Below are positions 14,710 to 58,887 of a stretch of DNA of 64,000 nucleotides, piece by piece. A program made the position numbers and the translations under genes. Each line of letters opens with the position of its first letter. The stretch's first letter is position 1. A model generated the notes under the pieces. That model searched no databases. It worked only from the letters and a program-made list of their open reading frames with translations, and was not told the DNA's origin. The DNA is from Betaproteobacteria bacterium (lineage in GTDB: Bacteria > Pseudomonadota > Gammaproteobacteria > Burkholderiales > CAIKXV01). Where the stretch lies: positions 142,491 through 206,490 of the forward strand of contig CANGYF010000004.1 in NCBI GenBank assembly GCA_947458265.1. The letters run 5' to 3'.

Positions 14710-14743
14710 TCTTCCAGGGCATGCAACGACAAGGCACCGCACG

Positions 14744-15775: not shown

Positions 15776-17077
15776 ATGGACAGCAAAGCCAAGGCAACCC
15801 TCTCGTTCAGCGACGGACGCCCGTCGGTCGACTTCCCGATCTACGGCGGCACCATTGGTCCCGACGTGATCGACGTGCGCTCGCTCTACGCCAAGACCGG
15901 TGCCTTCACCTATGACCCGGGCTTCATGTCGACCGCGTCGTGCAAGTCGAGCATCACCTACATCGACGGCGACGAGGGCATCCTGCGGCACCGCGGCTAT
16001 CCGATCGAGCAACTGGTCGAGAGCTGCGACCTGCTCGAGGTCGCCTACCTGATCATGAAGGGCGAACTGCCGAACGCGAAGGAGAAGAAGGAGTTCGACA
16101 GCACCGTCACCATGCACACCATGGTGCACGAGCAGATGGCTCGCTTCTACCAGGGCTTCCGCCGCGACGCGCACCCGATGGCGGTGCTCTGCGGCGTGGT
16201 CGGTGGCATGGCGGCCTTCTACCACGACTCGATCGACATCAACGACCCGAAGAGCCGGATGATCTCCGAGTTCCGGCTGATCGCGAAGATGCCGACCATC
16301 GTCGCGATGACCTACAAGTACAACGTCGGCCAGCCGTTCATGTACCCGCGCAACGACCTCGGCTATGTCGAGAACTTCATGCGCATGATGTTCGGCGTGC
16401 CCTGCGAGGACTACAAGCCGAACCCGGTGCTGGTGCGTGCCCTCGAGAAGATCCTGATCCTGCACGTCGACCACGAGCAGAACGCATCGACCTCGACCGT
16501 CCGCCTGGCTGGCTCGTCGGGCGCCAACCCGTTCGCCTGCATCGCAGCCGGCATCGCCAGCCTCTGGGGCCCGGCGCACGGCGGCGCGAACGAGGCCGTG
16601 CTGAAGATGCTCGACGAGATCGGCGACGTGTCGAACATCGACAAGTTCATCGCGCGCGCCAAGGATCCGACGGAAGCCTCGAAGCTGATGGGTTTCGGCC
16701 ACCGCGTGTACAAGAACTACGACCCGCGCGCGCGCCTGATCCAGGGTGCCTGCCACGACGTGCTGGCCGAGCTCGGCCTGGAAGACAACAAGATGTTCAA
16801 GCTGGCGATGGCCCTCGAGAAGGTCGCGCTGGAAGACGAATACTTCGTCAAGCGCAAGCTGTTCCCCAACGTCGATTTCTATTCCGGCATTGTGTACAAG
16901 GCGCTCGGCATCCCGGTGTCGATGTTCACCGCGCTGTTCGCGCTGTCGCGCACCATCGGCTGGATCGCACAGTGGAACGAGATGATCGAGGATCCGGACC
17001 AGAAGATCGGCCGTCCGCGCCAGCTGTTCCTGGGCGAGGCCGAGCGCACGCTCAAGCCGCTCGCCGAGCGCCGCTGA
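15776..17077 (+). CDS. gltA: citrate synthase (type II, hexameric type)
   Basis: 433 aa from ATG 15776 (RBS GGAGAA). It has 'HRGYPIEQL', '[14 protein letters not shown]' and '[14 protein letters not shown]'. Confidence 0.95.
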
Positions 17078-17120
17078 GCCAGCGGCCAGGCCTCGCAGAA
17101 AACAGACGGGAAGATTCCTG

Positions 17121-19958
17121 ATGATGCAAGAGATGTTCGGCAACTCCTACCTGTTCGGCTCGAATGCGCCGTTCATCGAGGAGCTCTACGATGCCTACCT
17201 GGCCGACCCCGCGTCGGTCGACGGCACCTGGCGGCAGTACTTCGACGCGCTGCAGCGGACGGGCAACGGCCCGGACGTGTCGCACGAGCAGGTGCGCGCG
17301 AAGTTCGCCGAGATGGCGAAACGCAGTCCCTACCAGGCGGCTGCGTCCACCGGGATCAGCGCCGAAGCGGCGCTGAAACAGGTGGCGGTGCTGCAGCTGA
17401 TCGGTGCCTACCGGTTCCTCGGCGTGCGTCATGCGGAGATCGACCCGCTGAAGCGCCAGGAAAAGCCGTACATCCAGGAACTCGACCCGTCGTTCTACGG
17501 TCTGTCCGATGCTGACATGGAGACGGAGTTCAACACCGGTTCGCTGGTGGGGCCGCAGCGCGCGACGCTGCGGCAGATCCTGACCCATGTCCGCGAGACC
17601 TATTGCGGCTCGATCGGTTTCGAGTACATGTACATCTCGGATCCGGCGCAGAAGAAGTGGATCCAGCAGCGCTTCGAGAGCATCCACTCGAAGCCGTCAT
17701 ACGACGCCACCTTCAAGCAGAACATCCTCGAGCGCCTGACCGCCGCCGAGACGCTCGAGAAGTACCTCCATACCAAGTACGTCGGCCAGACCCGCTTCTC
17801 GCTGGAGGGCGGCGAGACGCTGATCCCGATGCTCGACATCCTGCTGCAGCGCGCTGGCGCGAAGGGCGTCAAGGAGTCGGTAATCGGCATGGCCCATCGC
17901 GGCCGGCTGAACGTTCTGGTGAACACGCTGGGCAAGATGCCGAAGGACCTGTTCGCCGAGTTCGAAGGCAAGATCGACGAAGCCATCCTCTATGGCGACG
18001 TGATCTATCACGACGGCTTTTCGAGCGACATCACGACTCCGGGCGGCCCGATGCACCTGGCGCTCGCGTTCAATCCGTCGCACCTGGAGATCGTCAACCC
18101 GGTGGTCACCGGTTCGGTACGGGCGCGCCAGCACCGGCGTGGCGACAAGCTCGGCCGCGAGGTGATGCCGATTCTGATCCACGGCGACGCCTCGTATGCA
18201 GGGCAGGGCGTGGTGATGGAGACGCTGAACCTGTCGCAGACGCGCGGTTTCGGCACCGGCGGCACGATGCACCTCATCATCAACAACCAGATCGGCTTCA
18301 CCATCTCGGACCCGCGCGACTCGCGCTCGTCGCTGTATTGCAGCGACGTATCGAAGATGATCGAGGCGCCGATCTTCCACGTGAACGCCGACGACCCGGA
18401 GGCGGTCGCGCTGGTGATCGAAGCGGCACTCGACTTCCGTATGGAGTTCCGCAAGGACGTCGTGGTCGACATGGTCTGCTACCGCAGGCCCGGCCACAAC
18501 GAGCAGGACGAGCCGATGGTCACCCAGCCGCTGATGTACAAGGTGATCGGCAAGAAGGCTGGCACGCGCAAGTTGTACGCCGACAAGCTCGCCGCCGAGG
18601 GCGTGGTCACCGACAACATCGCGAGCGAGCTGATCAGCACCTATCGCACCGCGATGGATGGTGGTTACCACACGAACAAGACGGTGCTCTCCAACTTCAA
18701 GCCGCCCTATACGCCCAACTGGGAGCAGTTCAAGGGCACGAAGTGGAACGAGAACGACAACACCCAGATCCCGCTCGAGACCCTGAAGGAACTCGGCCGG
18801 CTGGTGTCGAAGGTGCCGGACGACTTCAAGCTGCACCCGCGGGTGCAGAAGATCATGGAAGACCGGCGGCTGATGGCCGAGGGGAGCATCCCGCTCGACT
18901 GGGGCATGGCCGAGACGCTCGCCTATGCGTCGCTGCTGAAGGACGGCTTCGCGATCCGCATGTCGGGTCAGGATGCCGGGCGCGGCACGTTCTTCCACCG
19001 CCATGCGGTACTCCATGACCAGAACCGCGAGCGCTGGGATTCCGGCACCTACATCCCGCTGCAGAACCTGTTCCCCGGACAGCCGGACTTCACCGTCATC
19101 GACTCGCTTCTGTCCGAGGAGGCGGTGCTCGGCTTCGAGTACGGCTACTCGTCCACCGAGCCGAACGAGCTGGTGATCTGGGAAGCCCAGTACGGCGACT
19201 TCGTCAACGGTGCCCAGGTCGTGATCGACCAGTTCATCGCTTCGGGCGAGGTGAAGTGGGGGCGCATGTCCGGCCTGGTGATGATGTTGCCGCACGGCTA
19301 TGAAGGCGCGGGTCCGGAGCACTCGTCGGGCCGCATCGAGCGCTTCCTGCAGCTGTGCGCCGACTACAACATGCAGGTGTGCTACCCGGCCACGCCGGTG
19401 CAGATGTTCTACCTGCTGCGCCGGCAGATGATCCGCCCGTATCGCAAGCCGCTGATCATCTTCACTCCGAAGAGCATCCTGCGCCACAAGGAGTCCGTGT
19501 CCCAGCTCGAGGAGTTCGCGCTCGACAAGTTCCGCCCGGTCAACGGCGAGTGGGATGCCGATGTCGATCCGGCGACGGCGAAGCGGGTCGTGTTCTGCAG
19601 CGGCAAGGTGTTCTACGACCTGCGCGCTGCGCGGCGCGAGGCCGGCATCAAGGACGTGGCGCTGGTGCGCATCTCGCAGCTCTATCCGTTCCCGCACGAC
19701 GAGTACAAGGAGCAGATCGATCTGTACCCGGCGGCGAAGGAGATCGTCTGGTGCCAGGAGGAGCCGCGCAACCAGGGCGCCTGGTACTGGGTGCAGCACT
19801 ACCTGCGCCGGCCGATGCGCAAGGGCCAGAAACTGTTCTATGCTGGCCGGGTATCATCCGCGACACCGGCGGTCGGCTACAAGAAATTGCACGCCATGCA
19901 ACAGAAAGAGCTCGTCACGGCAGCGATCACGCTCGGCGGCGGCGAGACGAAGGAATAG
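17121..19958 (+). CDS. sucA: 2-oxoglutarate dehydrogenase E1 component
   Basis: 945 aa. It is collinear with the SucA family throughout ('GFEYMYI', 'HRGRLNVL', 'YCSDVSKM', 'LLPHGYEGAGPEHSS'). Confidence 0.97.
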   Translation: MMQEMFGNSYLFGSNAPFIEELYDAYLADPASVDGTWRQYFDALQRTGNGPDVSHEQVRAKFAEMAKRSPYQAAASTGISAEAALKQVAVLQLIGAYRFLGVRHAEIDPLKRQEKPYIQELDPSFYGLSDADMETEFNTGSLVGPQRATLRQILTHVRETYCGSIGFEYMYISDPAQKKWIQQRFESIHSKPSYDATFKQNILERLTAAETLEKYLHTKYVGQTRFSLEGGETLIPMLDILLQRAGAKGVKESVIGMAHRGRLNVLVNTLGKMPKDLFAEFEGKIDEAILYGDVIYHDGFSSDITTPGGPMHLALAFNPSHLEIVNPVVTGSVRARQHRRGDKLGREVMPILIHGDASYAGQGVVMETLNLSQTRGFGTGGTMHLIINNQIGFTISDPRDSRSSLYCSDVSKMIEAPIFHVNADDPEAVALVIEAALDFRMEFRKDVVVDMVCYRRPGHNEQDEPMVTQPLMYKVIGKKAGTRKLYADKLAAEGVVTDNIASELISTYRTAMDGGYHTNKTVLSNFKPPYTPNWEQFKGTKWNENDNTQIPLETLKELGRLVSKVPDDFKLHPRVQKIMEDRRLMAEGSIPLDWGMAETLAYASLLKDGFAIRMSGQDAGRGTFFHRHAVLHDQNRERWDSGTYIPLQNLFPGQPDFTVIDSLLSEEAVLGFEYGYSSTEPNELVIWEAQYGDFVNGAQVVIDQFIASGEVKWGRMSGLVMMLPHGYEGAGPEHSSGRIERFLQLCADYNMQVCYPATPVQMFYLLRRQMIRPYRKPLIIFTPKSILRHKESVSQLEEFALDKFRPVNGEWDADVDPATAKRVVFCSGKVFYDLRAARREAGIKDVALVRISQLYPFPHDEYKEQIDLYPAAKEIVWCQEEPRNQGAWYWVQHYLRRPMRKGQKLFYAGRVSSATPAVGYKKLHAMQQKELVTAAITLGGGETKE

Positions 19959-20033
19959 GCCAAGAGAGGCTCCGGTCGCGCAGGCCCGTCCCCGGGCCGC
20001 GCGGACGAAACACGCAGACAAGGTGAATCGATC

Positions 20034-21272
20034 ATGCTGGTGGAAGTGAAGGTACCGATGCTGTCCGAGTCCGTCGCCGAGGCGACGCTGCTCTCGTGGC
20101 ACAAGAAGCAGGGCGAGTTCGTCAAGCGCGACGAGAACCTGATCGACATCGAGACGGACAAGGTGGTGCTCGAGTTGCCCGCGCCCGATTCCGGCGTGCT
20201 GGTGAGCATCGCCAAGGGCGATGGCGGAACGGTGGTGAGCCAGGAGGTGATCGCGACGATCGACACCGAGGCCACTGCCAGCGCCGCGGCGCCCGCAGCT
20301 GCCGCGGTAGCCCCTACTGCAGCCCCGGCCGCGGCCCCTGCACCGGCTGCGTCGCCGGCCGTGATGCCCGCAGCCCAGAAGATCGCCACCGAGCAGCATG
20401 TCGCCACCGACGCACTGGCCGGGTCCGGCCGTGGCGGTCGGGTGACCAAGGAAGACGTGCTGGGCGCGGTGCAGGCCCGTGCAGCGGCACCGGCCGCTGC
20501 GTCGGCGCCCGCCGCGCGCGCAGCGCTGCCGAAGGTCGAGGCACCGGTGAACGTGGGTGCGATCCTGGGCGACCGTCCGGAGCAGCGGGTACCGATGTCG
20601 CGCCTGCGCCAGCGCGTGGCAGAGCGCCTGCTTGCCTCGCAGGCGAACGCTGCCATCCTGACCACCTTCAATGAAGTGAACATGCAGCCGGTGATGGACC
20701 TGCGCGCGAAGTATCGCGACCGGTTCGAGAAGGAGCACGGCGTGAAGCTCGGCTTCATGTCCTTCTTCGTCAAGGCGGCCGTCTACGCGCTGAAGAAGTT
20801 CCCGGCGGTGAATGCCTCGATCGACGGCCCGGATATCGTCTACCACGGCTACTACGACATCGGCGTGGCCGTCTCCAGCCCGCGTGGACTGGTCGTGCCG
20901 ATCGTGCGCGATGCCGACCGCAAGACGATGGCCGACATCGAGAAGGAGATCGCCGAACTGGGCAAGCGTGCGCAGGACGGCAAGCTCACCCTCGAGGAGC
21001 TCACCGGCGGCACCTTCTCGATCTCCAACGGCGGTGTGTTCGGCTCGATGCTGTCGACGCCGATCATCAACCCGCCGCAGAGCGCCATCCTCGGCGTTCA
21101 CGCCACCAAGGATCGCCCGGTCGTCGAGAATGGCCAGATCGTCATTCGCCCGATGAACTACCTGGCGATGTCGTATGACCACCGGATCATCGACGGCCGC
21201 GAAGCGGTGCTGTCGCTGGTCGCCATGAAGGATGCCCTCGAGGATCCTTCCCGCCTGCTGCTGGACGTCTGA
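20034..21272 (+). CDS. sucB: dihydrolipoyllysine-residue succinyltransferase (E2 of OGDH)
   Basis: 412 aa. It has an N-terminal lipoyl domain (IETDKVVLE), an Ala/Pro linker, and a C-terminal catalytic '[13 protein letters not shown]' motif. Confidence 0.95.
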
Positions 21273-47778: not shown

Positions 47779-48798
47779 GTGATCGACGAGTTCGAATTCT
47801 TCCTCGAGAAGCCGTGGTCGGACGGGCTTCCGGTGGTGACACCGACCGAGGCGCGGCTGGCCCCCTTCCTGGCGGCAGCCGGGCGCGACCCGGACGAGCC
47901 GATCGGCCGCGTGCCGCCAGCGATGGAGCCGGTCACGGTGCGTATCGCTGCGATCCATGCGCTGATGGCCGGCTGCCGTCCCGAGTACCTGCCGGTCGTG
48001 CTCGGCGCGCTGCCGCTGGTCCTGCGCGACGAGTTCAACCTGAACGGCGTGCAGGGCACGATGCATGGCGTGGCACCCCTGATGATCGTCAACGGCCCGC
48101 ATGCGGCGAAGATCGGGCTCAATGGCGGCAACGGCTGCTTCGGCCCCGGTTTTCGCGCCAACGCGACCATCGGCCGTGCGATCCGGCTGATGCTGCTCAA
48201 CCTCGGCGGCGGCATGGCCGGCATCGCCTCGGCCACCATCTTCGCGACGCCGATGCGCTACACCGCGTGCCTCACCGAGAACGTCGCACGCAGCCCGTGG
48301 GATAGCCTCGCTGCCTCGAAAGGCTACGCGGCTGGCGATGACGTGATCACCTGCGCGATGGTCGAGAGCCCGCGCCTGCACTTCGACGACGTGAGCCAGG
48401 AGCCCGAGCGCCTGCTGACCGGCATCGCCGACGGCATGACTGCGCTCGGTTCATGGAACATGCATGCCCGCTCGGACATGGTGGTCGCCATGGGTCCGCA
48501 GCATGCGACGATCTGCGCGCAGGCCGGCATGAGTCGCGAAGACGTGCACCGCTGGCTGGTCGAACACGCCGGGCGTACGGTCGGCGACCTCAAGCGTGGC
48601 GGTAACTGGCGGCGCGAGCGTGCGCTGCAGTTCCCGATCAAGGTCGACCCCGACGACGATACCTGCTTCATCCCGACGCTGAAGGATCCGGTCGACCTGC
48701 AACTGATCGTCGCCGGTGGCTGGGGTCCATGCACCGCGATCTGCCATGGCTGGAGCGGCGGCAGCCGTGCGGTGCATGGCACCTATGCCGTCCGATGA
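47779..48798 (+). CDS. conserved protein of unrecognised family, paralog B (339 aa)
   Basis: GTG start at 47779 follows GGGAAGGGA. It shares blocks with paralog A: KPWSDGLPVVTPT, NGVQGTMHGVAPLMIVNGP, GGNGC(L/F)GPGFRANATIGRAIRL, DVITCAMVESPRL, GGWGP..HGW(G/S)GGSRAV. Confidence 0.8.
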   Translation: MIDEFEFFLEKPWSDGLPVVTPTEARLAPFLAAAGRDPDEPIGRVPPAMEPVTVRIAAIHALMAGCRPEYLPVVLGALPLVLRDEFNLNGVQGTMHGVAPLMIVNGPHAAKIGLNGGNGCFGPGFRANATIGRAIRLMLLNLGGGMAGIASATIFATPMRYTACLTENVARSPWDSLAASKGYAAGDDVITCAMVESPRLHFDDVSQEPERLLTGIADGMTALGSWNMHARSDMVVAMGPQHATICAQAGMSREDVHRWLVEHAGRTVGDLKRGGNWRRERALQFPIKVDPDDDTCFIPTLKDPVDLQLIVAGGWGPCTAICHGWSGGSRAVHGTYAVR

Positions 48799-48826
48799 AC
48801 CGAACACCCCTGGAAGGAAAGCAACC

Positions 48827-49354
48827 ATGAACGAACTGCCCTTCATCGACCCGACCGCGGGCGGCAACCGTCCGCCGGTCGCCCTCGCACCGCGTCCGAT
48901 GGATCTCGCCGGCAAGGTCGTGGCGATGATCGACAACACCAAGGAGCAGGGCAGCCTGATCCTCGAGACGGTCGCCCAGGTGCTGCGCGAACGCCATGGC
49001 GTCGCCAAGGTGATCATCCGGCGCAAGGAGCACTACTCCAAACCGGCCACCGACCAGCTGATCGACGAACTCGCGCAGGAGGCCCACCTGGCCGTCGCTG
49101 CCGTGGGTGGGTGAGGGTCCTGCACGTTGTGCAGTGTGCACGACACCGTGGAATTCGAGAAACGCGGCATCCCCGCGACCGTCATCATCACGCAGGCCTT
49201 CCGCAATGCCTGCATCTTCCAGTTCCGGTCCAAGGGCATGGCCGGCCATCCGTACATCGAGCTGCCGCATCCGATCAGCAACATGACCGAAGACGAAATG
49301 CGCGAAGTGACGCTGAAGGAAGTCGATGCGCTGGTGAAGCAGCTGGTCGCCTGA
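48827..49354 (+). CDS. candidate selenoprotein with U-G-S-C-T-L-C motif (in-frame TGA at 49112-49114 read as Sec, codon 96 of 175)
   Basis: ATG 48827 lies 8 nt after GGAAGGA. Track ORFs 48716..49114 and 49127..49354 are in the same frame and separated only by TGA plus four sense codons. The downstream part lacks an ATG and an RBS. A hairpin follows the TGA directly. Confidence 0.78.
49117..49144 (+). promoter_or_regulatory. SECIS-like hairpin immediately 3' of the in-frame UGA
   Basis: GUC-C-UGCAC (49117-49125) pairs with GUGCA-C-GAC (49136-49144), giving 8 Watson-Crick pairs and one C.C mismatch. The stem can extend by G.U, U.G and U-A pairs to a GUGC tetraloop at 49129-49132. The hairpin starts 3 nt after the UGA. 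Confidence 0.45.
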
Positions 49355-49370
49355 GCACGAGGCGGCGCGC

Positions 49371-49397
49371 GAGCCGGGGCTGCCCGTGCCCTGGCTC
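49371..49397. terminator. GC-rich hairpin between convergent genes (terminator-like, no U tract)
   Basis: GAGCCGGGGC (49371-49380) pairs with GCCCTGGCTC (49388-49397): 10 bp including one G.U, around a 7-nt loop. It lies between the selenoprotein stop (49354) and the methyltransferase stop (49417). Confidence 0.3.
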
Positions 49398-49416
49398 CCG
49401 GGGGCGCGGTCGGCCC

Positions 49417-50175
49417 CTAGCGTGGCCGCACGAAGCGCAGCGCGAACTTGTCGCTCGAGGGTTTCGCCTCGTTGTAATGAGTAGCACGGGTATCGGCCGG
49501 ATTGCGCCAGGCGGCGCTGTCGGCTTCGAACACGAACCCTGCCGCCTCCACCTCCCGCCGCAGCACCGTTTCTTCGATGCGATGGAAGGTTCTCGTCTCT
49601 GAGAGACCGGTGCCCGGCCGTCCGGAATGGTCCATGACGACCAGCCGTCCACCGGGCTTGAGTGCGTTGAACATCGCCCGGTTCAGCTTCATCCGGTCGG
49701 TGGGGGTGTTGACGATGTCGTGGTAGGAGAGGACCAGCGTGACCAGGTCGACCCGTGCCGCCTCGGCCGGGAACGGATCGTCGAACGGGCGCATCAGCAC
49801 TTCGATGTTCGACGGCGCTGCCTTCGCCCGCTCGATCAGTGCCGGACCGGGCTTCGGCGCCTGCGCCCAGACCTTGCCCCGCTCGCCGACCGCCACCGAC
49901 ATCACCTGCGTGGTGTAGCCGCCGCCGGCGGAGATGTCGAGCACCGTCATGCCCGGACGCACGCCTGCCAGTTGCAGCAGGTCGGCCGGCATGCGCCGCG
50001 CATCGGCCTTTCGGTCTGCGTCCGGCCGTAGCGGGCTGGCCAGCACCGGGGCGTAGTCCATCGGCGGCTGCAGGAGCGCGCATCCCGGCAGGGTCGAGAC
50101 CAGCGCCCCCGAGGCGCCCAGCAGGGCGAGGTTGGCGACAAGGCCGCGACGGGTGCGGTTGGGCGGCTGGATCAT
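49417..50175 (-). CDS. class I SAM-dependent methyltransferase-like protein with N-terminal export/lipoprotein-like signal
   Basis: 252 aa with the SAM motif I 'VLDISAGGGYTT' and post-I/II blocks. The N-terminus 'NRTRRGLVANLALLGASGALVSTLPGC' resembles a twin-arginine signal plus lipobox. Confidence 0.82.
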   Translation of the reverse strand: MIQPPNRTRRGLVANLALLGASGALVSTLPGCALLQPPMDYAPVLASPLRPDADRKADARRMPADLLQLAGVRPGMTVLDISAGGGYTTQVMSVAVGERGKVWAQAPKPGPALIERAKAAPSNIEVLMRPFDDPFPAEAARVDLVTLVLSYHDIVNTPTDRMKLNRAMFNALKPGGRLVVMDHSGRPGTGLSETRTFHRIEETVLRREVEAAGFVFEADSAAWRNPADTRATHYNEAKPSSDKFALRFVRPR

Positions 50176-50284
50176 GCTCGGACTCCTGCTGGCGGGTTTG
50201 GGTAGGGCACCAACATGCTAACAAGTCCGGCGTGCGCGCGCCGTCCGGGGCTGGGCACGAATGCTGCGGGCTCGCCGTCCGATA

Positions 50285-50298
50285 TTGACGATCGTCAA
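50285..50298. promoter_or_regulatory. perfect FNR/Anr/Dnr-type palindrome TTGAC-GATC-GTCAA
   Basis: This 14-nt perfect inverted repeat matches the TTGA(T/C)-N4-(A/G)TCAA consensus. Its centre lies about 79 nt upstream of the uspA ATG. A -10-like GACTAT at 50322-50327 is at class-II spacing. Confidence 0.55.
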
Positions 50299-50370
50299 GG
50301 CAGGCGCAGACCACGCGCCCAGACTATGAACCGCAGGCATTCGCCTGCCGAACCCGGGAGACTACACATC

Positions 50371-50889
50371 ATGTACCGCAGGATTCTGGTAGCCATCGAC
50401 GACAGCGAGACCTCCGCACGCGGCCTGGACGAGGCGATCAAGCTGGCCAGGGGCGACGCTGCCCAGCTGTGCATCATGCACGTGATCGAGCCCATGGCGC
50501 TCGCGATGTACCCGGAAGCGGCCGCCTATGCCGACGACCTGTTCGGGATGCTGCGCGAGTCGGGCAAGGCGCTGGTGCAGAAGGCTTCCGCGAAGGCTGC
50601 GCGGCGCGGGGTGGTGGCGCGAATGGCACTGGTCGAGGATCGCGGCTTCCCGATCGCGGATCTGATCGTCGAGTACGCAGGGCGGTGGAAGGCCGACGTG
50701 ATCGTGCTCGGCACCCACGGCCGCCGCGGCTTCAGTCACCTGCTGATGGGCAGCGACGCCGAGAGCGTGGTGCGCCTGTCGCCGATCCCGGTGCTGCTGG
50801 TGCGCAGTCCGGAGGGTAGTGCGCCGAAGGCGGCTCCGGCGAAGCGGGCGGGCGGCGCGAAGCGCGGTGCTGGCCGCAAGCGCGCTTAG
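50371..50889 (+). CDS. universal stress protein (UspA family)
   Basis: 172 aa from ATG 50371 (RBS GGGAGA). It starts 'ILVAIDDSE' and has the ATP-binding motif 'VLGTHGRRGFSHLLMGSDAESV', with a basic Lys/Arg/Ala tail. Confidence 0.9.
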   Translation: MYRRILVAIDDSETSARGLDEAIKLARGDAAQLCIMHVIEPMALAMYPEAAAYADDLFGMLRESGKALVQKASAKAARRGVVARMALVEDRGFPIADLIVEYAGRWKADVIVLGTHGRRGFSHLLMGSDAESVVRLSPIPVLLVRSPEGSAPKAAPAKRAGGAKRGAGRKRA

Positions 50890-51063
50890 CGGCACGAGCC
50901 ACAGCGCAGGGCCTGCACTGCGCCGTCGTTGAACCTGCCGGATTCACAGGCACCTGTCATCTACGGTATGCTTTTCCGGCTACCGCAAGGTGGCTGGGAC
51001 GCGCGGTATTGCCGGGGGGCCTTCCCCGGCTGCACGCGCGCTCGGACCAGGGGGAGTGAATCG

Positions 51064-52338
51064 ATGAGCAGAAAATGGATGGCTGCGCTCGCGCGCGGCA
51101 TGCTGCCCGCCGCGCTGGCTGGCGCGTTCGGGATGATCGCCGGAGTGGCCGGGGCACAGACGCCGACCACACCGCCAACGGCCAAGGAGGTCGAGGCGCG
51201 CCGCGCGATGGGTGGGTATTTCCCCGAGCGGATGACGAACCCGAACCTCACGGCCAATCCGCCCCACCTCATCGCGACACCACTCGACCAGATCCCGCTC
51301 GACCGGATCCGTGTACCCGAGGGCTTCAAGGTGGAAGTCTGGGCGCACGGCATTCCCGGCGGACGCATGATGGCGCGCGCCCCGGGTGGTACGATTTTCG
51401 TCGGTACCCGCACGATCGGCCGCGTCTACGCGGTCTACGAGCAGAACGGCCAACGCGTCAACAAGGTGGTTGCCGAGAAACTCGTGCAGCCCAACGGCGT
51501 GCTGGTGCAGAACGGCTCGCTGTACATCGCCGCGATCAACCGCGTGTTCCGCTACGACAACATCGAGGCCAACCTCGAGAACATCCCGACGCCGGTGGAC
51601 ATGACCGAGGCGTTCAAGCTGCCGCCCGAGGTGCACCACAACTGGAAGTTCCTCGCCTTCGGCCCCGACGGGAAGATCTACTTCCAGGTCGGCGCGCCCT
51701 GCAACGCCTGCGAGATCAACCCCGGCGTGCATGGCCAGATCCGTCGCTACAACCTCGACGGCTCGGGCATGGAGATCGTCGCGCGCGGTGTACGCAACAC
51801 CGTGGGCTTCGACTTCCATCCGAAGACCGGCGAGCTCTGGTTCACCGACAACGGACGTGACTGGGCTGGCGAGAACGGCTTCGAGGACGAGCTCAACCGG
51901 CTGCCCGCCAACATGATCGGCGCGAACTTCGGCTTCCCGTACTGCCATGCCAACGGACAGCCCGACCCGGATGTCCGCGTGCCCAATCCCTGTGCCAACA
52001 CCATCCTTCCGGTGACGTTGCTGGGTGCGCACACGGCCGCACTGGGCATGCGCTTCTACACCGGCAAGATGTTCCCGGCCGACTACCAGAACTCGATCAT
52101 GATCGCGCGTCGCGGTTCGTGGAACCGCACCGAACGCGCAGGCTATGACGTGGTGCGTGTGACCGCGACGCCGGATGGCCGCAATGCACGGGTGACCCCG
52201 TTCATGACCGGCTTCCTGGACACCGCGAAGAACGCCTACTACGGCCGGCCGGTCGATGTGCTGCAGTTGCCCGACGGATCGATGCTGGTCGCCGACGAGC
52301 AGAATGGCGCAATCTACCGCGTGAGCTACTCGAGGTGA
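51064..52338 (+). CDS. PQQ-dependent sugar/sorbosone dehydrogenase-family protein (soluble, beta-propeller)
   Basis: 424 aa from ATG 51064 (RBS GGGGGAG), with a signal peptide. The blocks 'FTDNGRDWAGENGFEDELNRL' and 'GANFGFPYCH' are typical of this family. Confidence 0.85.
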   Translation: MSRKWMAALARGMLPAALAGAFGMIAGVAGAQTPTTPPTAKEVEARRAMGGYFPERMTNPNLTANPPHLIATPLDQIPLDRIRVPEGFKVEVWAHGIPGGRMMARAPGGTIFVGTRTIGRVYAVYEQNGQRVNKVVAEKLVQPNGVLVQNGSLYIAAINRVFRYDNIEANLENIPTPVDMTEAFKLPPEVHHNWKFLAFGPDGKIYFQVGAPCNACEINPGVHGQIRRYNLDGSGMEIVARGVRNTVGFDFHPKTGELWFTDNGRDWAGENGFEDELNRLPANMIGANFGFPYCHANGQPDPDVRVPNPCANTILPVTLLGAHTAALGMRFYTGKMFPADYQNSIMIARRGSWNRTERAGYDVVRVTATPDGRNARVTPFMTGFLDTAKNAYYGRPVDVLQLPDGSMLVADEQNGAIYRVSYSR

Positions 52339-52979
52339 CAGGCAGTGTCGATCGCGCGCCGCAGTCGCTGCGGCGCGTGTTCGCGTCGGTTGCGCTGGGC
52401 GCGACGCTCGCGGCCGGCGTGGCCTCCGCCCAGCAGGTCTGGCGCGTAGGCGATCCTGCCAGGGGAGCGTCACTCGCCGCCGGCTGCGCAGGCTGCCACG
52501 GCGAGCACGGTGCGGCACCGCTTCCGGGCATGCCGGCGCTGGCCAGCCAGCAGCCGGAGTTCCTCATGCTGCAACTCGTGCTGATGCGCGAAGGGTTGCG
52601 CGATGTGCCGGCGATGGCCGGGACACTGAAGGGACTCAACGATCGCGATCTGGTGGATATCGCCACCTACTACGGAGCGGCCCGGCCGTTCCGCAGCCCG
52701 CCTGCGCGCGATCCGGCGCTCTACGCCCGTGGCGAAACGCTGTCCGGGGCGATGGGTTGCAACAGCTGCCACATGGGCGACTACAGCGGTCAGCGCCAGG
52801 TGCCGCGGCTGGTCAACCAGCGTGAGGACTACCTGGCGGCCGCGCTGCGCGCCTACCGCGACGACCGGCGCAGCGGCACGGATACCAGCATGAATGCGGT
52901 GATGTACAAGGCTGTCGACGCGGATATCGCCGCAATCGCGCACTACCTGGCGCAGCGCCCGAACGATCAGATACGGTAG
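52335..52979 (+). CDS. dihaem c-type cytochrome (c4-like)
   Basis: GTG 52335 overlaps the preceding stop (GTGA). It has a signal peptide and two CxxCH sites (CAGCH, CNSCH). Confidence 0.85.
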   Translation: MTGSVDRAPQSLRRVFASVALGATLAAGVASAQQVWRVGDPARGASLAAGCAGCHGEHGAAPLPGMPALASQQPEFLMLQLVLMREGLRDVPAMAGTLKGLNDRDLVDIATYYGAARPFRSPPARDPALYARGETLSGAMGCNSCHMGDYSGQRQVPRLVNQREDYLAAALRAYRDDRRSGTDTSMNAVMYKAVDADIAAIAHYLAQRPNDQIR

Positions 52980-54058
52980 CGCTCGACGCGACGCCAGTCG
53001 ACGAGGGTCGAGAGGCCCACGGTGTCGTCCAGCCTTACGACACCGTGGCTGATCTCGGGCGATCGCGTGGTGATCTGATCGGCGTAGGCCAGGAAGAACG
53101 TGGATTCGGCCGGCAGCGATCCTGCGTGTCGGGGAAATGCGGCTGCCACGTTGAGGCTCGCGAACGCGCCCAGTGCGCTTTCCGCATGTAATCCCACGTT
53201 CACCGCACATCCGGCCGCATCTGCTGCGTGCGCGATGTCGAGGGCGATACTTGCGCCAACCCGGGCCGCCTTGAGGCCGATGAAGCGCGCGCCGCGTTCC
53301 AGGAACAGTTCGGCGTCTTCCAGCGACAGACAGCGCCCGTCCACCACGAACGGAATGGGCAGGGCGCGCTGGGTCTCTTCGAACCAGCGATTGGGGCGCA
53401 GGTCGCACGGATCTTCCGCATGCGTGGCGCCCTTGTCCGCAAGCAGCGCCACATAGGCTGCAGTCTGCTCAGGCGTGTAGGCGGTATTGGCGTCGACATA
53501 GAAGCTCACCTCGGCGCCTACCGCTGTACGGATCTCGTCCAGCGCCTTCGCATCGGTGTCGAAACCCTGGCCGCCCTTGATCTTCAGGGTCCTGAAGCCG
53601 TGACGCTCGACCATGCTGGCCGCTTCCCGCGCCATCTCCAGGGGCAGGGCGCGAGTCACGGTCCACGACACGGGCACTTCGGGCGTGCCCTTCCAGAGCT
53701 GCCATAGCGGCACGCGTTGCGCCTGCGCGCGCAGGTCCCAGCATGCGCTGTCGATGAGTCCCTTCGCCAGTCGGTTCTCCGGGAAAGGAGCAAGCCGCTG
53801 GCGCACGGCTCGAACATCCGAGAGGTCCACGCCCTTCAGCGCCGGCAGCAGCATGTCCTCGAGCACCGCGACCAGCGCCCTGCGTGTCGTACCGGTCCAG
53901 GTCGGCTTGATCGCCCCCTCGGCGACGCCTTCCAGGCCGTCATCCGTGAACAGCCGCAGCAGCATCAACTCGCAGCCTTCTTCCACCGTATCTTTCCAGT
54001 GGATCGGGCGAGGGTAGGGCAGCCTGATCGCAGTCAGGGTCGAGCGTTCGAGTTGCAT
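52967..54058 (-). CDS. enolase-superfamily enzyme (mandelate racemase/muconate lactonizing enzyme family)
   Basis: 363 aa. It has an N-terminal capping domain and barrel motifs 'LKIKGG', 'FYVDANTAY' and 'HAEDP'. Confidence 0.88.
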   Translation of the reverse strand: MQLERSTLTAIRLPYPRPIHWKDTVEEGCELMLLRLFTDDGLEGVAEGAIKPTWTGTTRRALVAVLEDMLLPALKGVDLSDVRAVRQRLAPFPENRLAKGLIDSACWDLRAQAQRVPLWQLWKGTPEVPVSWTVTRALPLEMAREAASMVERHGFRTLKIKGGQGFDTDAKALDEIRTAVGAEVSFYVDANTAYTPEQTAAYVALLADKGATHAEDPCDLRPNRWFEETQRALPIPFVVDGRCLSLEDAELFLERGARFIGLKAARVGASIALDIAHAADAAGCAVNVGLHAESALGAFASLNVAAAFPRHAGSLPAESTFFLAYADQITTRSPEISHGVVRLDDTVGLSTLVDWRRVERYRI

Positions 54059-54097
54059 GTACGAAGTCCCTGTCTCCGGTTCCTGAAGGTCACGCGG

Positions 54098-55105
54098 TCA
54101 TTCAGGCTTGATCCCGGTCTCCTGCGCAACCTTGCGCCAGCGGTTGATCTCGTTGGAAACGAAGCGCTGGAACGCCTCGGCGCTCATGGCCTCCGGCTCC
54201 GCACCCTCGCCGGCGAAGCTCTGCCTGAGCTCGGTGGACTGCAACGCCCTGGCCAGTTCGCTCCCCAGCCGGGCAGTGATCTCGGCCGGCGTCTTCACCG
54301 GAACCACCAGGCCCCACCAGAACTCCGCCATGTAGCCGGGTACGCCGGACTCGGCGATGGTCGGCACCTGCGGCATGAAGCTGCTGCGCTTCTCGCTGGC
54401 CACGCCCAGCGCTCTCATGCGGCCGGCCTGGACCTGGGTCATCGCCGAGGGCAGGCTGGTCATCACCAGCTGGATGTGACCGCCCATCAGGTCGGTCAGC
54501 GCTGGTGCCGCCCCTTTGTACGGCACGTGGATGATGTTGATGCCGGCCATGCGCTTGAACAGTTCCGTGGCCATGTGGTTATGGCTGCCGGTGCCGGTGG
54601 AGCCGTAGTTGATAAGCCCGGGCTTGGATTTCGCCAGCGCGAGGAACTCGCGCACATTCCTCACCGGCAGCGACGGATGCACCACCATCAGCAGCGGACC
54701 GCGCGCCATCATCCCGACATAGGCGAAGTCGGCGATCGGCTCGTAGGGCAGCTTCGGCCGCAGCGCGGCATTGGCGACGAAGGAGGCCTGGATATTGAGC
54801 ATGCTGTAGCCATCGCCGGGCGACCTCGCGACGATCTCGGTACCGACGATGCCGCCGCTGCCCGGACGGTTCTCGACGACGATCTGCTGGCCGAGTCCAG
54901 GGCTCATGGCCTGCGCCGTGATCCGCGACAGCACATCGTTGCTGGCCCCGGGCGGGAAGGGCACGACCAGGCGAATCGGTTTGGCCGGCCAGGCCTGGGC
55001 CTGTGCCTGTGCCTGTGCCTGCACGGGACCGGTGGTGATCGCGTGGAAAGCGGTGGCAAGGATTGCGGCAACAAGCGGGGCACGCAGCCCGGAGCGCATG
55101 AACAT
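54098..55105 (-). CDS. Bug-family (TctC-like) substrate-binding protein
   Basis: 335 aa. The signal peptide ends in a (QA)n run followed by WPAKP, then 'VPFPPGASND'. Confidence 0.9.
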   Translation of the reverse strand: MFMRSGLRAPLVAAILATAFHAITTGPVQAQAQAQAQAWPAKPIRLVVPFPPGASNDVLSRITAQAMSPGLGQQIVVENRPGSGGIVGTEIVARSPGDGYSMLNIQASFVANAALRPKLPYEPIADFAYVGMMARGPLLMVVHPSLPVRNVREFLALAKSKPGLINYGSTGTGSHNHMATELFKRMAGINIIHVPYKGAAPALTDLMGGHIQLVMTSLPSAMTQVQAGRMRALGVASEKRSSFMPQVPTIAESGVPGYMAEFWWGLVVPVKTPAEITARLGSELARALQSTELRQSFAGEGAEPEAMSAEAFQRFVSNEINRWRKVAQETGIKPE

Positions 55106-55122
55106 TGTCGGTCACCTCCACT

Positions 55123-55383
55123 TCAGAGGACGTCGGTTTCGTCGATCGCCTTCTGCACCGCGCTGGCGGTCACCCTGGCCCTCGTTGCGGCTGGCGCCAG
55201 CACCATGAAGCGACCGCTCTGCCGCTTCGGGGACGCCTGCATGATGTCGGCCTGCAGGCCGCGCTCGACCACGCTGCCCGGCAGCCGGGCAAGCGGAATG
55301 TCGTCGCGCTGCGACTGCCGCCGCAGCCGCTCATGCAATGCGTCGCTCAGTTCGATGGTGGTGCGCACGATGATTCTCCACAT
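55123..55383 (-). CDS. ribbon-helix-helix (CopG/VapB-like) antitoxin-like protein, no cognate toxin gene adjacent
   Basis: The N-terminus 'VRTTIELSDALHERLRRQSQRDDIPLARL...VERGL' resembles RHH antitoxins. The C-terminal half is not recognisable. Confidence 0.5.
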   Translation of the reverse strand: MWRIIVRTTIELSDALHERLRRQSQRDDIPLARLPGSVVERGLQADIMQASPKRQSGRFMVLAPAATRARVTASAVQKAIDETDVL

Positions 55384-55414
55384 CAGTGATGCAATGAATC
55401 ATACGGTGCGTCGA

Positions 55415-55510
55415 GAGCCGGGCGCAAACCAGGTTCACCGACACGCCCGAATCGGCCCTTTTCAAGAACCCGATGAGCTGCGCCTCCGAGAACCGCTTCT
55501 TCACGTCCAA
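55415..55510 (-). mobile_element. IS3-family transposase OrfA N-terminal remnant (about 30 codons only)
   Basis: The translation 'KKRFSEAQLIGFLKRADSGVSVNLVCARL' matches the conserved start of IS3-family OrfA (HTH). Similarity ends abruptly and no OrfB follows. Confidence 0.55.
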
Positions 55511-55876
55511 CCTCCTTTTCGGGGCCGGACTCTGAACCTTCATGCTACTGATTCTTGGGGGGCGTCGCTGCCGCTATGCGTAGTTCCGTCCGCAGCAAGG
55601 GCAGGGTTATCGGACGTCGTCGTCGGTTATGTGCAGGCTCACCCGGTGAGCCCGCTCTCAGCCAAGATCCCGCGCTGTGATACGGCCTGATATAGAGGGC
55701 ATCATGGATCTGACAGAAGGCAGGCCCTTCGTGCCTGCGCGAACATGAGTTTCCCGGGCCTTGCGTGGTCATGGCACAGTATGAAAAGACGAACCTGGTC
55801 GCGCTATTGTTGGCGAAGGTCAAGGCACTCTGGACATGTTGCCTACTAGATCGCCCAACCGGCACCGGGGTGCTGG

Positions 55877-56155
55877 GTGATGCAAGCCCGCGTGCGAAAC
55901 GCAGTTCTGGACGACGTGACGGACGAGGATGTCGAAGCGTGCCGGCTGAACGATGACCAGATCCAGGCTATGTCGGGCCAGACGCTCGAGGATGCGCAGA
56001 CTGCCGAGTACCGCAAGGTCGTTGCCTGGTGCGACGAAGTCGACCCGGACTGCACCGCCAAGGACATGGCGGCCGTTCTTTACAGGGCAGTTTGCGAGGA
56101 GGGCGGCAAGGAGATTACCGAGCCGGACCCGATCATCGGCCTGCTGGAGGTGTGA
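55877..56155 (+). CDS. small acidic hypothetical protein (about 91-92 aa)
   Basis: Start is GTG 55877 or ATG 55880. Its stop overlaps the next start (TGATG). No family is recognised. Confidence 0.45.
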   Translation: MMQARVRNAVLDDVTDEDVEACRLNDDQIQAMSGQTLEDAQTAEYRKVVAWCDEVDPDCTAKDMAAVLYRAVCEEGGKEITEPDPIIGLLEV

Positions 56156-56730
56156 TGGGAACCATGGACCGACTTACTTATACATCTGACCGGATTTCCG
56201 AGAGCGTCCGCGACGCAGCGGGCGATGCGGCAGCGCAGTGTGGCTACGACCAGTTCGAGGAGGTGTTGCTCGATTACGTAATCGTCGGCATACGACGGGT
56301 TTCCGCTCGGTCGGTCAAGGATCACTATCCCGAATGGCTGGAGCCGCCGTGTTCGTTTTCGCCTGACGAAATCGTTCGAGTCGACTGGCAAACCTGGGCT
56401 GTGCCCAAGGGCTACGTAAGCGCTTGTAAGGGAGGCGTGATTGCACGCGCCGATTCCATCCTCGTAGCCATCCCGACCCTTTTAGCGCGGGAGGTGTTCA
56501 CCTACGGATTGGGCCCCGAATACAACTGGCTGGAATGGGAAGAAGGCGTTCCCCCGGCAGGCGAGCCAGCGGCGTGCGCTTTCGAGGCGCTTTATGACCT
56601 GATCACCAGCGAATGGCTGGATGATATTTGCTGGGATGCCGACAGGGACCCTCGCTATCTGGATGACCTTCATCCCGACCTTCGGGCGACAGTCGCTAAG
56701 GCGATCGACAACTGCGGCAACCGTTCATGA
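56155..56730 (+). CDS. hypothetical protein (191 aa)
   Basis: ATG 56155 overlaps the preceding stop, and its own stop overlaps the next start (ATGA at 56727-56730). No family is recognised. Confidence 0.55.
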   Translation: MGTMDRLTYTSDRISESVRDAAGDAAAQCGYDQFEEVLLDYVIVGIRRVSARSVKDHYPEWLEPPCSFSPDEIVRVDWQTWAVPKGYVSACKGGVIARADSILVAIPTLLAREVFTYGLGPEYNWLEWEEGVPPAGEPAACAFEALYDLITSEWLDDICWDADRDPRYLDDLHPDLRATVAKAIDNCGNRS

Positions 56731-57512
56731 GCCGTTCGGGCTATCCCCCCTGGGTGGTCTTGCACATTCCGCATGACTCCACCTTCATCCCCGACCAAGT
56801 GCGGCCGCAATTCCTGCTGTCCGAGCAAGATCTCGCGCTCGAGCTTCAGCGCATGACCGATCATTTCACACACGCGCTGTTTGCCGAGCCGTCTGGTGAG
56901 GCTACGGTCATTCGCGCACCGGTCAGTCGCTTGGTGGTCGATGTGGAGCGTTTCGCCGACGACGCGATGGAGCCGATGGCCGCCCGGGGCATGGGGGCCG
57001 TTTACCAAGTTACGTCGCAACTCGCACCGCTTAGACGTCTGCTGCAGCCAGAGGAGCGTGAGGCGCTGATGCGTGAGTGGTATCGGCCTCACCACGAGCG
57101 GCTCGAGTGGTCGGTTGCCAGTGCTGTCGATCGGCACGGGCGTTGCCTTGTGATCGACTGCCACAGCTTCCCCGGGACGGCGCTGCCCTACGAGGACGCA
57201 GATCCTTTCGGTGCCCGACCGGACATCTGCATAGGGACCGATCCGTTCCACACGTCAGACGCGCTGGGGCAGGCCTTCATCGCCGCGTTCGGTTGCGACA
57301 GCTGGCGCGTTACGGTGAACGAACCTTTTGCGGGCGCTCTGGTACCGGCAAGCCGGTATCGTAAAGACCCTCGCGTTGCCGCGGTGATGGTCGAGGTGAA
57401 ACGGGATCTGTATCTCGACCGTTCAAATTTTTGCCCAGACCGACACTTTGATCTGATCGCGACCGAGGTGAAGCGCCGCTGCGTCGAGGCGATTTCGGCG
57501 TGGCAGGGGTGA
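56727..57512 (+). CDS. N-formylglutamate amidohydrolase (FGase)-family protein
   Basis: 261 aa with 'VVLHIPHDSTFIP', 'RLVVDVERF' and 'LVIDCHSFP' motifs characteristic of the FGase family of metal-dependent hydrolases. Confidence 0.75.
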   Translation: MSRSGYPPWVVLHIPHDSTFIPDQVRPQFLLSEQDLALELQRMTDHFTHALFAEPSGEATVIRAPVSRLVVDVERFADDAMEPMAARGMGAVYQVTSQLAPLRRLLQPEEREALMREWYRPHHERLEWSVASAVDRHGRCLVIDCHSFPGTALPYEDADPFGARPDICIGTDPFHTSDALGQAFIAAFGCDSWRVTVNEPFAGALVPASRYRKDPRVAAVMVEVKRDLYLDRSNFCPDRHFDLIATEVKRRCVEAISAWQG

Positions 57513-57730
57513 ATGATCTCTGGCGGACAAAGGCCCGCCAGCTTCATTCCAAACGCTATTGGCCGCTTCCGGGAGTTAAGCGCATCGACCTTCTTCTGTT
57601 TGTCCTAACCCCGTTCCCGAGCATCAGCCCGACATCGGCATACGCCAAACAGGGAAATCTACTTCCCTTTACAGATCAGAGGATTGCTGCACTCTGATGT
57701 GTTGTTCGTGCACTTGGGAGGGGATGCTGC

Positions 57731-57806
57731 TGGCGCCCCGAAGACGAATCGAACGTCCGACCTGCCCCTTAGGAGGGGGCTGCTCTATCCACTGAGCTAC
57801 CGGGGC
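57731..57806 (-). tRNA. tRNA-Arg (anticodon CCU)
   Basis: The minus strand reads GCCCCGG-TA-GCTC-AGTGGATA-GAGC-A-GCCCC-CTCCTAA-GGGGC-AGGTC-GGACG-TTCGATT-CGTCT-TCGGGGC-G-CCA. This is a 76-nt cloverleaf with an encoded CCA and a TTCGA T-loop. Confidence 0.92.
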
Positions 57807-57882
57807 GTGGCCCGGCGCGACCAGCCGGGATCCGGATTCTACCCCGGTCGCGTCGCAGGCATCAGCTACGCGCCAGCCCTTG

Positions 57883-58887
57883 TCAATCCGCCGTGATCTT
57901 CAACCGCTTGATCGTCTCCCCGTACGTGCGCGCGTCTGACCGCACCAGGTCGGCCATCTGCTTCGGCGTGCCGCCCACCGGGTTGATGCCCTGTGCGGTC
58001 AGCTGCCCGCGGATGTCGGTCGAGCGCACCACCTCGGTGGCATCGCGTGCGATCTTCTCGAGCAGGCGCGGGGGCGTGCTCGCTGGTGCATAAAGCGCGA
58101 ACCAGCTCACCACGCGGAAGCCCTTGTAGGTTTCGCCAACGGCGGGCGCCGCCGGGAACTGCGGGTTGCGCTTGACGCCGCCGGTGGCCACCGGGAACAC
58201 GCGGCCGCTGGTGGCGAAGCCCATCGCAGCCGCGGGCGAGACGAACATCGCATCGACGTTGCCGGCCGCGACCTCGGCGGCGCCGGGCGGGCCGCCCTTG
58301 AACGGGACATGCACCATCGACACGCCCAGCAGCTGGTTCAGCTGCTCGAAGCCGAGGTGGTGCACGGTGCCGATGCCGGCCGAGGCGAAGGTGCGCTGCC
58401 CGGGCTGCTTCAGCGCCAGTGCGCGCAGGTCGTCCAGGGTCCGGATGCCCGACTTCGCCGATGCGATCAGCACGTAGTCGGTGTCGGCGAGGTTGACCAC
58501 CGGTGCCAGCGCCTTCTGCGGGTCGATGCTCAGGTTGCGCTGGATCGCTGGTGCGATGACGATCGCGCCTTCCTGCGCGAGCATCAAGGTGTGTCCGTCG
58601 GGTTCGGCCTTGGCGACGATCTCGGCGGCGAGCAGCCCGCCGACGCCGCCGCGGTTGTCGACGATCACCGACTCCTTCCAGGCGTCGGTCAGGCCGCGCG
58701 CAACGATGCGAGCGGCAAGGTCTGCGCCGCTGCCGGCGGTATTGCCGACGATGAAGCGCACCGGCCGGGTCGGGAAGCGCATGTCGTTCGCTGCGGCGCC
58801 CATGGGCACCAGCATCGAGGCCAGGCCGATGGCCAGGGTGCACAGGAGGGCGGCGGCGCGGCGCGTCGGCAGAGGTGCAGCAGGCAT
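57883..58887 (-). CDS. Bug-family (TctC-like) substrate-binding protein
   Basis: 334 aa from ATG 58887, with a signal peptide followed by 'PTRPVRFIVGNTAGSGAD'. The 749-aa track ORF upstream of 58887 overlaps the M1 peptidase gene in another frame. Confidence 0.88.
   Translation of the reverse strand: MPAAPLPTRRAAALLCTLAIGLASMLVPMGAAANDMRFPTRPVRFIVGNTAGSGADLAARIVARGLTDAWKESVIVDNRGGVGGLLAAEIVAKAEPDGHTLMLAQEGAIVIAPAIQRNLSIDPQKALAPVVNLADTDYVLIASAKSGIRTLDDLRALALKQPGQRTFASAGIGTVHHLGFEQLNQLLGVSMVHVPFKGGPPGAAEVAAGNVDAMFVSPAAAMGFATSGRVFPVATGGVKRNPQFPAAPAVGETYKGFRVVSWFALYAPASTPPRLLEKIARDATEVVRSTDIRGQLTAQGINPVGGTPKQMADLVRSDARTYGETIKRLKITAD

Follow-up and report, generated by a model that had tools for sequence, protein, structure and literature searches.

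A decayed islet at a tRNA-Arg(CCU) hotspot retains a conserved gene pair encoding an acidic 191-amino-acid protein and an FGase-family hydrolase

The described systems closest to the locus reported here are the enzymes of the HutG/FGase family (PF05013; structures 2q7s and 2odf), tRNA-linked genomic islands, the accessory and anti-defence gene arrays of conjugative and integrative elements, of which plasmid leading-region arrays are an example, and type II toxin-antitoxin (TA) bicistrons. The locus is a segment at 55.4-57.7 kb of a 64 kb stretch of a metagenome-assembly scaffold from a Betaproteobacteria bacterium (contig CANGYF010000004.1; hereafter, the window), which was compared with related contigs designated L0xx and L1xx. 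It contains two overlapping genes, the first for an acidic protein of 191 amino acids (aa) and the second for an FGase-family hydrolase. The hydrolase has its fold, its family and the motifs PH..., DVER and DCHSFP in common with HutG/FGase. Like tRNA-linked islands, the segment is positioned at a tRNA 3′ end, deviates in composition, varies between close relatives and bears an insertion sequence (IS) scar. Related loci resemble anti-defence arrays in being co-directional and overlapping, in encoding many small acidic proteins of unknown function together with Macro, ADP-ribosyl-glycohydrolase and HD_4 proteins, and in lying beside recombinase and ParB modules. The pair also recalls type II TA bicistrons, in that the gene for an acidic protein stands upstream, overlaps the enzyme gene at an ATGA and persists with it in decayed islets. 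As an islet, the locus is an ordinary scarred tRNA hotspot; what is new is the combination of a known enzyme family with a partner of novel predicted fold. With slightly more confidence than doubt, we read the segment as the decayed, immobile remnant of an integrative-element cargo array at tRNA-Arg(CCU), whose co-acting gene pair would serve element-host conflict.

Both genes of the pair are on the forward strand. The intact 191-aa protein, with an isoelectric point (pI) of 4.3, is encoded at 56155..56730, as identified by its open reading frame (ORF), and the intact 261-aa FGase-family enzyme (PF05013), of the Zn-amidohydrolase fold, at 56727..57512, as identified with Pfam. Stop and start codons overlap as TGATG at 56153-56157 and as ATGA at 56727-56730; these overlaps and the ORF coordinates were present as described in an earlier reading of this DNA made from its letters alone (the sequence-only reading). 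The arrangement was conserved without exception, the FGase gene directly following the 191-aa gene in 9 of the 9 other loci with enough sequence (L007, L009, L010, L011, L012, L013, L014, L015 and L113). Ratios of nonsynonymous to synonymous substitution (dN/dS) against four to five of these nine loci spanned 0.14-0.23 in the 191-aa gene and 0.14-0.20 in the FGase gene; with any one partner locus, the two genes gave similar dN values. Within the population, comparison of the window with L003 offered too few differences for a selection test. The window copies of both proteins keep every family-invariant residue. The pair is co-inherited and under purifying selection, and its two genes evolve at similar rates.

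The same pair was found in a second islet that lacks an integrase, located at tRNA-Ala(CGC) in L007 3411-9358 (equivalent to L013 5411-11358). This islet contains Transglut_core, YhaV/PrlF toxin-antitoxin, HTH_17 and Fic genes, followed by the 191-aa gene and the FGase gene with no coupled gene upstream, and it ends, like the window segment, at a Bug/TctC gene.

Assignment of the enzyme to the FGase family, made in the sequence-only reading, was borne out at the levels of sequence and predicted structure. The protein matched PF05013 with an E value of 2.7e-51 and a score of 175.3 bits (cutoff 28.9) over profile positions 3-219 of 219. Its AlphaFold model (predicted local distance difference test (pLDDT) score 90.2) was matched by Foldseek to 2q7s at E=2.5e-15 with a template modelling (TM) score of 0.81 and to 2odf with a TM score of 0.68, and more distantly to Amidase_3 and a phage poly-gamma-glutamate hydrolase. 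The HS motif aligned with 2q7s. Residues H13, H16, D72, E74, R75, H122, H123, D144, H146, E156, E223 and R226 are invariant in the clade and all are present in the window enzyme; all of these except R75 and R226 are putative metal-binding or catalytic residues and are invariant in 28 clade members.

Against the HutG equivalog model TIGR02017 the enzyme scored 52.6 bits, far under the cutoff of 278.75; hut genes (hutU, hutH, hutI or hutF) were found neither in 53.5-60 kb of the window nor in any related locus. Mapping of the genes to a known catabolic pathway, named beforehand as a refuting outcome, was not observed. The window FGase is not a HutG orthologue and probably does not serve histidine catabolism. 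It differs from HutG also in standing outside any hut operon, in belonging to a clade of 60-75% mutual identity that occurs in mobile-element arrays and in being coupled to an acidic partner.

The FGase clade is highly conserved and large, with more than 2000 clusters at E<=1e-10, the best 120 of them at 59-76% identity. Relatives in plasmids reached only about 40% identity and were from Rhodococcus; in phages there was one match, at 30%, in a Vibrio jumbo phage, and a scan of IMG/VR with the FGase profile yielded nothing that was confirmed. The Rhodococcus relatives are carried by pNSL1 (L107, record 5911-6681) and by about 40 other plasmids of this genus, often 4-9 kb from the end of the plasmid record; pNSL1 and pRHL3 are recorded as linear. 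In pNSL1, the one near-end case examined, the FGase gene lies in a one-directional array of small hypothetical genes, with DUF3846, DUF3560 and 3′-5′ exonuclease genes nearby.

No domain had been recognised in the 191-aa protein by the sequence-only reading, and wider searches recovered none: the protein had no match in Pfam, NCBIfam, PHROGs, PADLOC, PDB sequences or Foldseek, and no DNA-binding domain was detected in it. Ten longer relatives in its family (300-470 aa) were likewise free of domains in a Pfam scan. The family comprised 64 clusters in 5.8e9 proteins, 57 of 1.84e9 representatives in a full profile search, and members in 5 of 185,579 species genomes, one of which is that of the isolate Limnohabitans sp. 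Jir72 (contig NZ_NESC01000002.1); searches of 72,556 plasmid and 50,697 phage records found no member. Its members are consistently acidic (pI 4.1-5.2). The AlphaFold model of the 191-aa protein (pLDDT 88.6, predicted TM score 0.82) had no match at E<=0.001 when PDB and BFVD were searched with Foldseek, and the top matches, to NTF2-like, VirB8 and RAD52/ERF structures, were rejected as its fold because their TM scores were below 0.3. The family is rare and unnamed, with a confidently predicted structure that matches no known fold. Low confidence is confined to a single loop of the model, at residues ~106-124; this loop contains the invariant motif TYGLGPEYNW and is a putative interaction epitope.

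The sequence-only reading had placed these two genes in a three-gene unit that opened with a 92-aa acidic protein. That unit has to be redrawn as the conserved two-gene pair and a fragment made by deletion. The supposed 92-aa protein is a residual ORF at 55877-56155, with its ATG at 55880. In tblastn searches, residues ~405-516 of the 516-aa protein of L012, and the protein P0121, aligned with window positions 55826-56152, the homology extending 5′ of the ORF start and across an in-frame TAG at 55847-55849. The feature at 55826..56155 (forward strand) is a truncated remnant consisting of the last ~110 codons of a 516-aa-type gene. Immediately upstream, at 55741..55830 of the forward strand and in another frame, tblastn with the 132-aa NTF2-like protein of L012 identified a second fragment (E=3e-9), which corresponds to residues ~75-103 of the 132/153-aa array gene and is 73% identical in DNA to L012 5046-5120. 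In L012, the 132-aa NTF2-like gene precedes the 516-aa gene, which in turn directly precedes and overlaps the 191-aa gene. The truncated homology to both L012 genes, continuing through a stop codon, indicates that two gene fragments were joined when roughly 1.2 kb was deleted.

The residual ORF retains a Shine-Dalgarno-like GGAGG and the TGATG junction to the 191-aa gene, and its relatives in the 5.8e9 proteins amounted to two clusters only, namely itself and one 146-aa protein. The NTF2-like family is also present in L010, L011, L017 and L113. Elsewhere the gene 5′ of the pair varies, encoding a Zn-ribbon protein of 96-99 aa in L010, L011, L014 and L113 and the 516-aa protein in L012, and being absent in L007. 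The Zn-ribbon protein of Limnohabitans was tried as a homologue of the small window ORF and rejected (hhalign probability 0.5%), a look-alike alignment in MAFFT being dismissed.

The segment lies on the 3′ side of the tRNA-Arg(CCU) gene at 57731..57806 (reverse strand; anticodon CCT in the DNA; identified by ARAGORN and, at 61 bits, by the Rfam tRNA model), and the 3′ end of the tRNA at 57731 forms its right edge. A deviant, low-GC composition had been claimed for it from hand counts, and sliding-window analysis agreed: the GC content of 55384-57714 was 0.604, the minimum among all windows of the same size across the 64 kb and about 3 standard deviations below their mean (0.671, standard deviation 0.023). 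GC content at third codon positions (GC3) was also low, at 0.66 in the 191-aa gene and 0.72 in the FGase gene, as opposed to 0.79-0.90 in flanking genes.

Comparison with relatives had been set beforehand as the test able to refute the islet, and in L105 and L112 different DNA was found at this position, so that the islet stands. L112, located via a protein that clusters at 90% identity with the neighbouring M1 peptidase, was collinear with the window from 64000 to 57731 (94.5% identity over 6.3 kb), and the alignment ended exactly at the tRNA 3′ end. Past tRNA-Arg(CCU), L112 13416-22118 carries several small ORFs, a gene for a 539-aa DUF2779 protein, an IS21 element (IstA/IstB) and an IS256-type transposase gene. 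L105, from another metagenome, was 99.8% identical to the window from 59296 to 57715, a stretch that runs from the Bug gene through the tRNA and on into the 16 bp directly 3′ of it (57715..57730, no strand assigned), which alignment showed to be common to the two with 2 mismatches. The last 180 bp of L105 (1583-1762) matched neither the window nor L112 and represent a third variant of the tRNA-Arg flank, which makes 57715 the point at which the islet diverges. The occurrence of three different sequences at tRNA-Arg(CCU) in three near relatives indicates a hypervariable hotspot and a strain-specific islet.

The right-flank Bug/TctC protein was also used as a metagenome query for the orthologous locus, and this was abandoned when only paralogues at 31-39% identity were returned. 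A DUF2779 protein is encoded downstream of the FGase array in the Limnohabitans locus L014 as well; it was only 29% identical to that of L112, over 180 aa.

At the left end, the sequence-only reading had the islet begin with an IS3 OrfA remnant and a ribbon-helix-helix (RHH) antitoxin-like gene, of which the former was upheld and the latter was not. The IS3-family OrfA (helix-turn-helix) remnant comprises the N-terminal ~40 codons and was placed by tblastn at 55418..55537 (reverse strand), within the ORF 55331-55543. Residues 3-42 of this ORF were 60-62% identical to IS1389/IS1403-type IS3 transposases (E=4e-7); the Pfam HTH_Tnp_1 match alone was sub-threshold (E=0.0045). Since only ~40 OrfA codons are left and no rve/DDE (OrfB) ORF was found, the IS3 piece is a fragment and not an element, and it marks the left scar of the islet. 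The presumed RHH gene, at 55123..55383 on the reverse strand, encodes an 86-aa basic protein in which the RHH signature is weak, the matches to RHH_5 (E=0.14) and an Arc-like PHROG (E=0.0095) both being sub-threshold; no toxin ORF adjoins it and no PDB relative was found. Its GC3 of 0.87 is native, so the gene probably belongs to the left flank, outside the islet.

Between the FGase stop codon and the junction with the tRNA-proximal 16 bp, the sequence at 57513..57714 is a non-coding spacer of GC content 0.53 (no strand assigned). It opens with a GC-rich hairpin, CTGGCGG..CCGCCAG, at ~57519-57541, which may be a terminator, although it was not flagged by a pattern scanner. Three independent assemblies terminate or diverge within ~57529-57715. 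Independent short-read assemblies from the same population broke near both ends of the segment: L104, L004, L005 and L106 end at 57529-57583, and L002 and L004 start at 55491 and 55485, respectively, inside the IS3 scar region. The left-hand breaks fit a repeated IS sequence, and the right-hand ones fit heterogeneity among strains.

The segment is therefore horizontally acquired, strain-specific and compositionally foreign, is IS-scarred and internally deleted, and lies at a tRNA hotspot. It differs from tRNA-linked islands in having no integrase, no direct repeat of an attachment site (att) and no mobility genes, and at 2.3 kb it is a residue rather than an island. The absence of a surviving integrase, as the sequence-only reading had it, was confirmed, with no integrase ORF in the window; a search of 48000-58200 for att sites found no direct repeat of the tRNA 3′ end.

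The origin of the pair was indicated by related mobile elements. In L010, L011, L012, L014, L017 and L113, the FGase gene closes a co-directional array of often overlapping genes; the arrays were delimited at 3689-9376 in L010, 6931-11763 in L014, 5539-9358 in L011, 5831-8807 in L017 and 4918-11403 in L113. The typical order begins with DUF3293, a 94-aa protein, an NTF2-like protein of 132-153 aa, sometimes HD_4, and an acidic family here called family X (210-344 aa), and continues with a 370-396-aa protein, the Zn-ribbon or the 516-aa protein, the 191-aa protein and FGase. The array of L012 is without the 94-aa and family X genes, and that of L017 is without the 191-aa gene. Family X proteins have a pI of 4.3-4.7, and where the 191-aa family is absent they adjoin FGase, upstream of it in L017 and downstream in L019. 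The unnamed proteins of the arrays had no match in Pfam, NCBIfam or PHROGs.

The surroundings of the arrays include a divergent WYL-WCX/SprT-like pair, DUF3857-transglutaminase, Macro, MerR, VIT-VWA, MetK, PLD-like, ADP-ribosyl-glycohydrolase, SNase, DUF2779, SRAP, UmuD-like, Cho and IMS genes. In L012, a full MetK (S-adenosylmethionine synthetase) gene and a PLD-like gene at 2361-3551 lie upstream of the 516-aa, 191-aa and FGase genes. Large serine recombinases mark the array ends in L011 and L113, together with ParB_N/RepB and SocA/Panacea in L113. The latter locus (IMGVR_UViG_3300032102_000021) is filed as viral; its positions 13950-20488 hold ParB_N/RepB genes, two large serine recombinase genes and SocA/Panacea, and the part examined had no Pfam match typical of phage structural genes. 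Judged by this gene content, L113 resembles an integrative element more than a phage. Relatives of the pair (L011, L113) are located in mobile elements next to recombination and partition genes, and the window itself holds remnants only. In L017, the array lies directly downstream of genes at 1-2338 for a 2140-aa DEAD/Helicase_C/MZB helicase, DruE-like by domain reading, and a UvrD-type helicase, which suggests a defence island beside the array.

No conjugation genes were present in the flanks examined, and no ArdA, KlcA, Acr or similar known anti-defence gene was found. In this the related loci differ from described anti-defence arrays, in which, moreover, FGase is without precedent in the literature searched; no paper in that literature ties FGase or DUF3293 to mobile elements, or FGase, DUF3293 or the array to defence or counter-defence.

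Under the reading that we favour, the upstream part of such an array would have been lost through insertion of IS3 and one or more internal deletions, leaving fragments of the NTF2-like and 516-aa genes and one intact two-gene module. The 191-aa protein and FGase would be co-translated and act together. FGase is predicted to hydrolyse a small conserved amide or N-acyl substrate. In regulating the enzyme or lending it specificity, the 191-aa protein may use its invariant, exposed TYGLGPEYNW loop to bind either this substrate or its target. The pair would then aid the element against its host, in establishment or in counter-defence, by erasing a modification or signal. The case for element-host conflict is one of analogy, the same arrays encoding the "eraser" enzymes Macro, ADP-ribosyl-glycohydrolase and HD_4. 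A bolder version, which we regard as rather unlikely, is that the pair, perhaps with the DUF3293/NTF2-like/family X array, is the effector end of an undescribed counter-defence or host-takeover system, in which a Zn amidohydrolase would erase an amide-linked immune signal or modification and the novel-fold partner would target or gate the enzyme through the TYGLGPEYNW loop.

Several observations weigh against this reading of the segment. The eraser analogy is guilt by association drawn from some ten loci; no member of the arrays has a demonstrated function, and no array protein matches PADLOC or PHROGs. The FGase clade, with its more than 2000 clusters, is far larger than the 191-aa family with its 64 and occurs without it, so the partner is dispensable for the enzyme; clade members at 61-69% identity in L017, L019 and the P0198 locus have no 191-aa homologue, and hhalign excluded from the family two ORFs, of 210 aa and 191 aa, that lie near FGase in L017. 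Because neither an att repeat nor an integrase is present in the window, we infer integration at the tRNA from the behaviour of the hotspot. The left edge, at ~55384-55420, was placed from base composition and the position of the IS3 scar rather than by alignment to a relative. Finally, a scan limited to one promoter type found no sigma-70-like promoter in 55000-58000, and expression of the pair in this host is accordingly hypothetical. This last result also speaks for an inert relic, in which the ORFs are intact only through recent deletion and IS events, are unexpressed and have no role in this host; the segment has lost the upstream array along with any native promoter, its first ORF is a gene fragment, and it is absent from close relatives. 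We nonetheless think a relic very unlikely, given that neither ORF is truncated or lacks any family-invariant residue and that the same two-gene core survives alone in the independent tRNA-Ala islet, while the promoter scan speaks to its one promoter type only.

The sequence-only reading had counted defence and toxin-immunity among the typical cargoes of such islets. A check against PADLOC-DB v2 did not support this, the 92-aa, 191-aa and FGase proteins having no match and the only hit, between DrmC and the IS3 fragment, being at chance level (E=0.005). A defence or toxin-immunity cassette is not favoured over element-side cargo, and the presence of the pair in element cargo arrays elsewhere points as much to element-side functions as to host defence. 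A type II TA-like or toxin-immunity pair, in which FGase would be the toxin, for example by deacylating an essential N-acylated metabolite or fMet-tRNA, and the acidic 191-aa protein the antitoxin, would stabilise the element or abort infection. The order of an acidic partner and a larger enzyme gene with a 4-bp ATGA overlap is as expected of such a pair, as is its intactness in two islets without integrases, a frequent trait of addiction modules; the invariant exposed loop could plug the active site, and the L007 islet also carries YhaV/PrlF and Fic. However, obligate pairing is contradicted by the FGase clade members that lack a 191-aa homologue, the partner has neither a detected DNA-binding domain nor a PADLOC match, both proteins are large for a TA pair, and at most loci the pair sits inside a long co-directional array and is no stand-alone bicistron. 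We consider this explanation unlikely.

A niche-metabolic cassette would have FGase hydrolyse an N-formyl or N-acyl amino acid or a gamma-glutamyl compound imported via the neighbouring Bug/TctC binding proteins, with the 191-aa protein as accessory subunit. Histidine catabolism is where the FGase family is best known, according to its Pfam description, Bug/TctC genes flank the pair in the window and in L007, and the homologue P0198 sits among amino-acid catabolic genes. These associations are countered by the low score against the HutG equivalog, by the lack of linked hut genes, transporter membrane components or regulators, and by the native composition of the flanking Bug genes, the right-hand one being kept in L112, which is without the pair; the other contexts of the pair are mobile-element arrays without metabolic genes. 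We give this account a low probability. The left-hand Bug/TctC gene (54098-55105) contains a hexanucleotide tandem repeat, (GCCTGT) x 4.8, at window 54993-55021, which encodes (AQ)n near the protein N-terminus (about residues 29-37) and could be a slippage-prone length polymorphism.

Similarly improbable, in our view, is that the pair is cargo of a regulon induced by DNA damage or single-stranded DNA. The WYL-WCX/SprT-controlled array would then act on DNA or on DNA-protein adducts alongside SRAP, UmuD/UmuC, Cho and Macro, FGase removing a formyl or amide adduct or a peptide remnant. Consistent with this idea, the arrays of L011 and L014 start at the divergent WYL-WCX and SprT-like pair, that of L011 runs on into SRAP, Peptidase_S24, Cho and IMS genes, and L019 has a WYL neighbour. 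In L010, L012, L017 and L113, however, MerR/VWA or MetK/PLD neighbours take the place of WYL/SprT, no nucleic-acid-binding domain was detected in either protein, and the regulator is absent from the window.

The islet isolates, as a minimal surviving unit, a pair that elsewhere is hidden among the unknown genes of long arrays carried by integrative elements of freshwater Betaproteobacteria. If the pair does not serve element-host conflict, the locus would be a well-documented example of island decay only. If it does, amide hydrolysis would be a new activity among counter-defence erasers, and the pair would provide a handle on some eight further conserved unknown genes of the same array.

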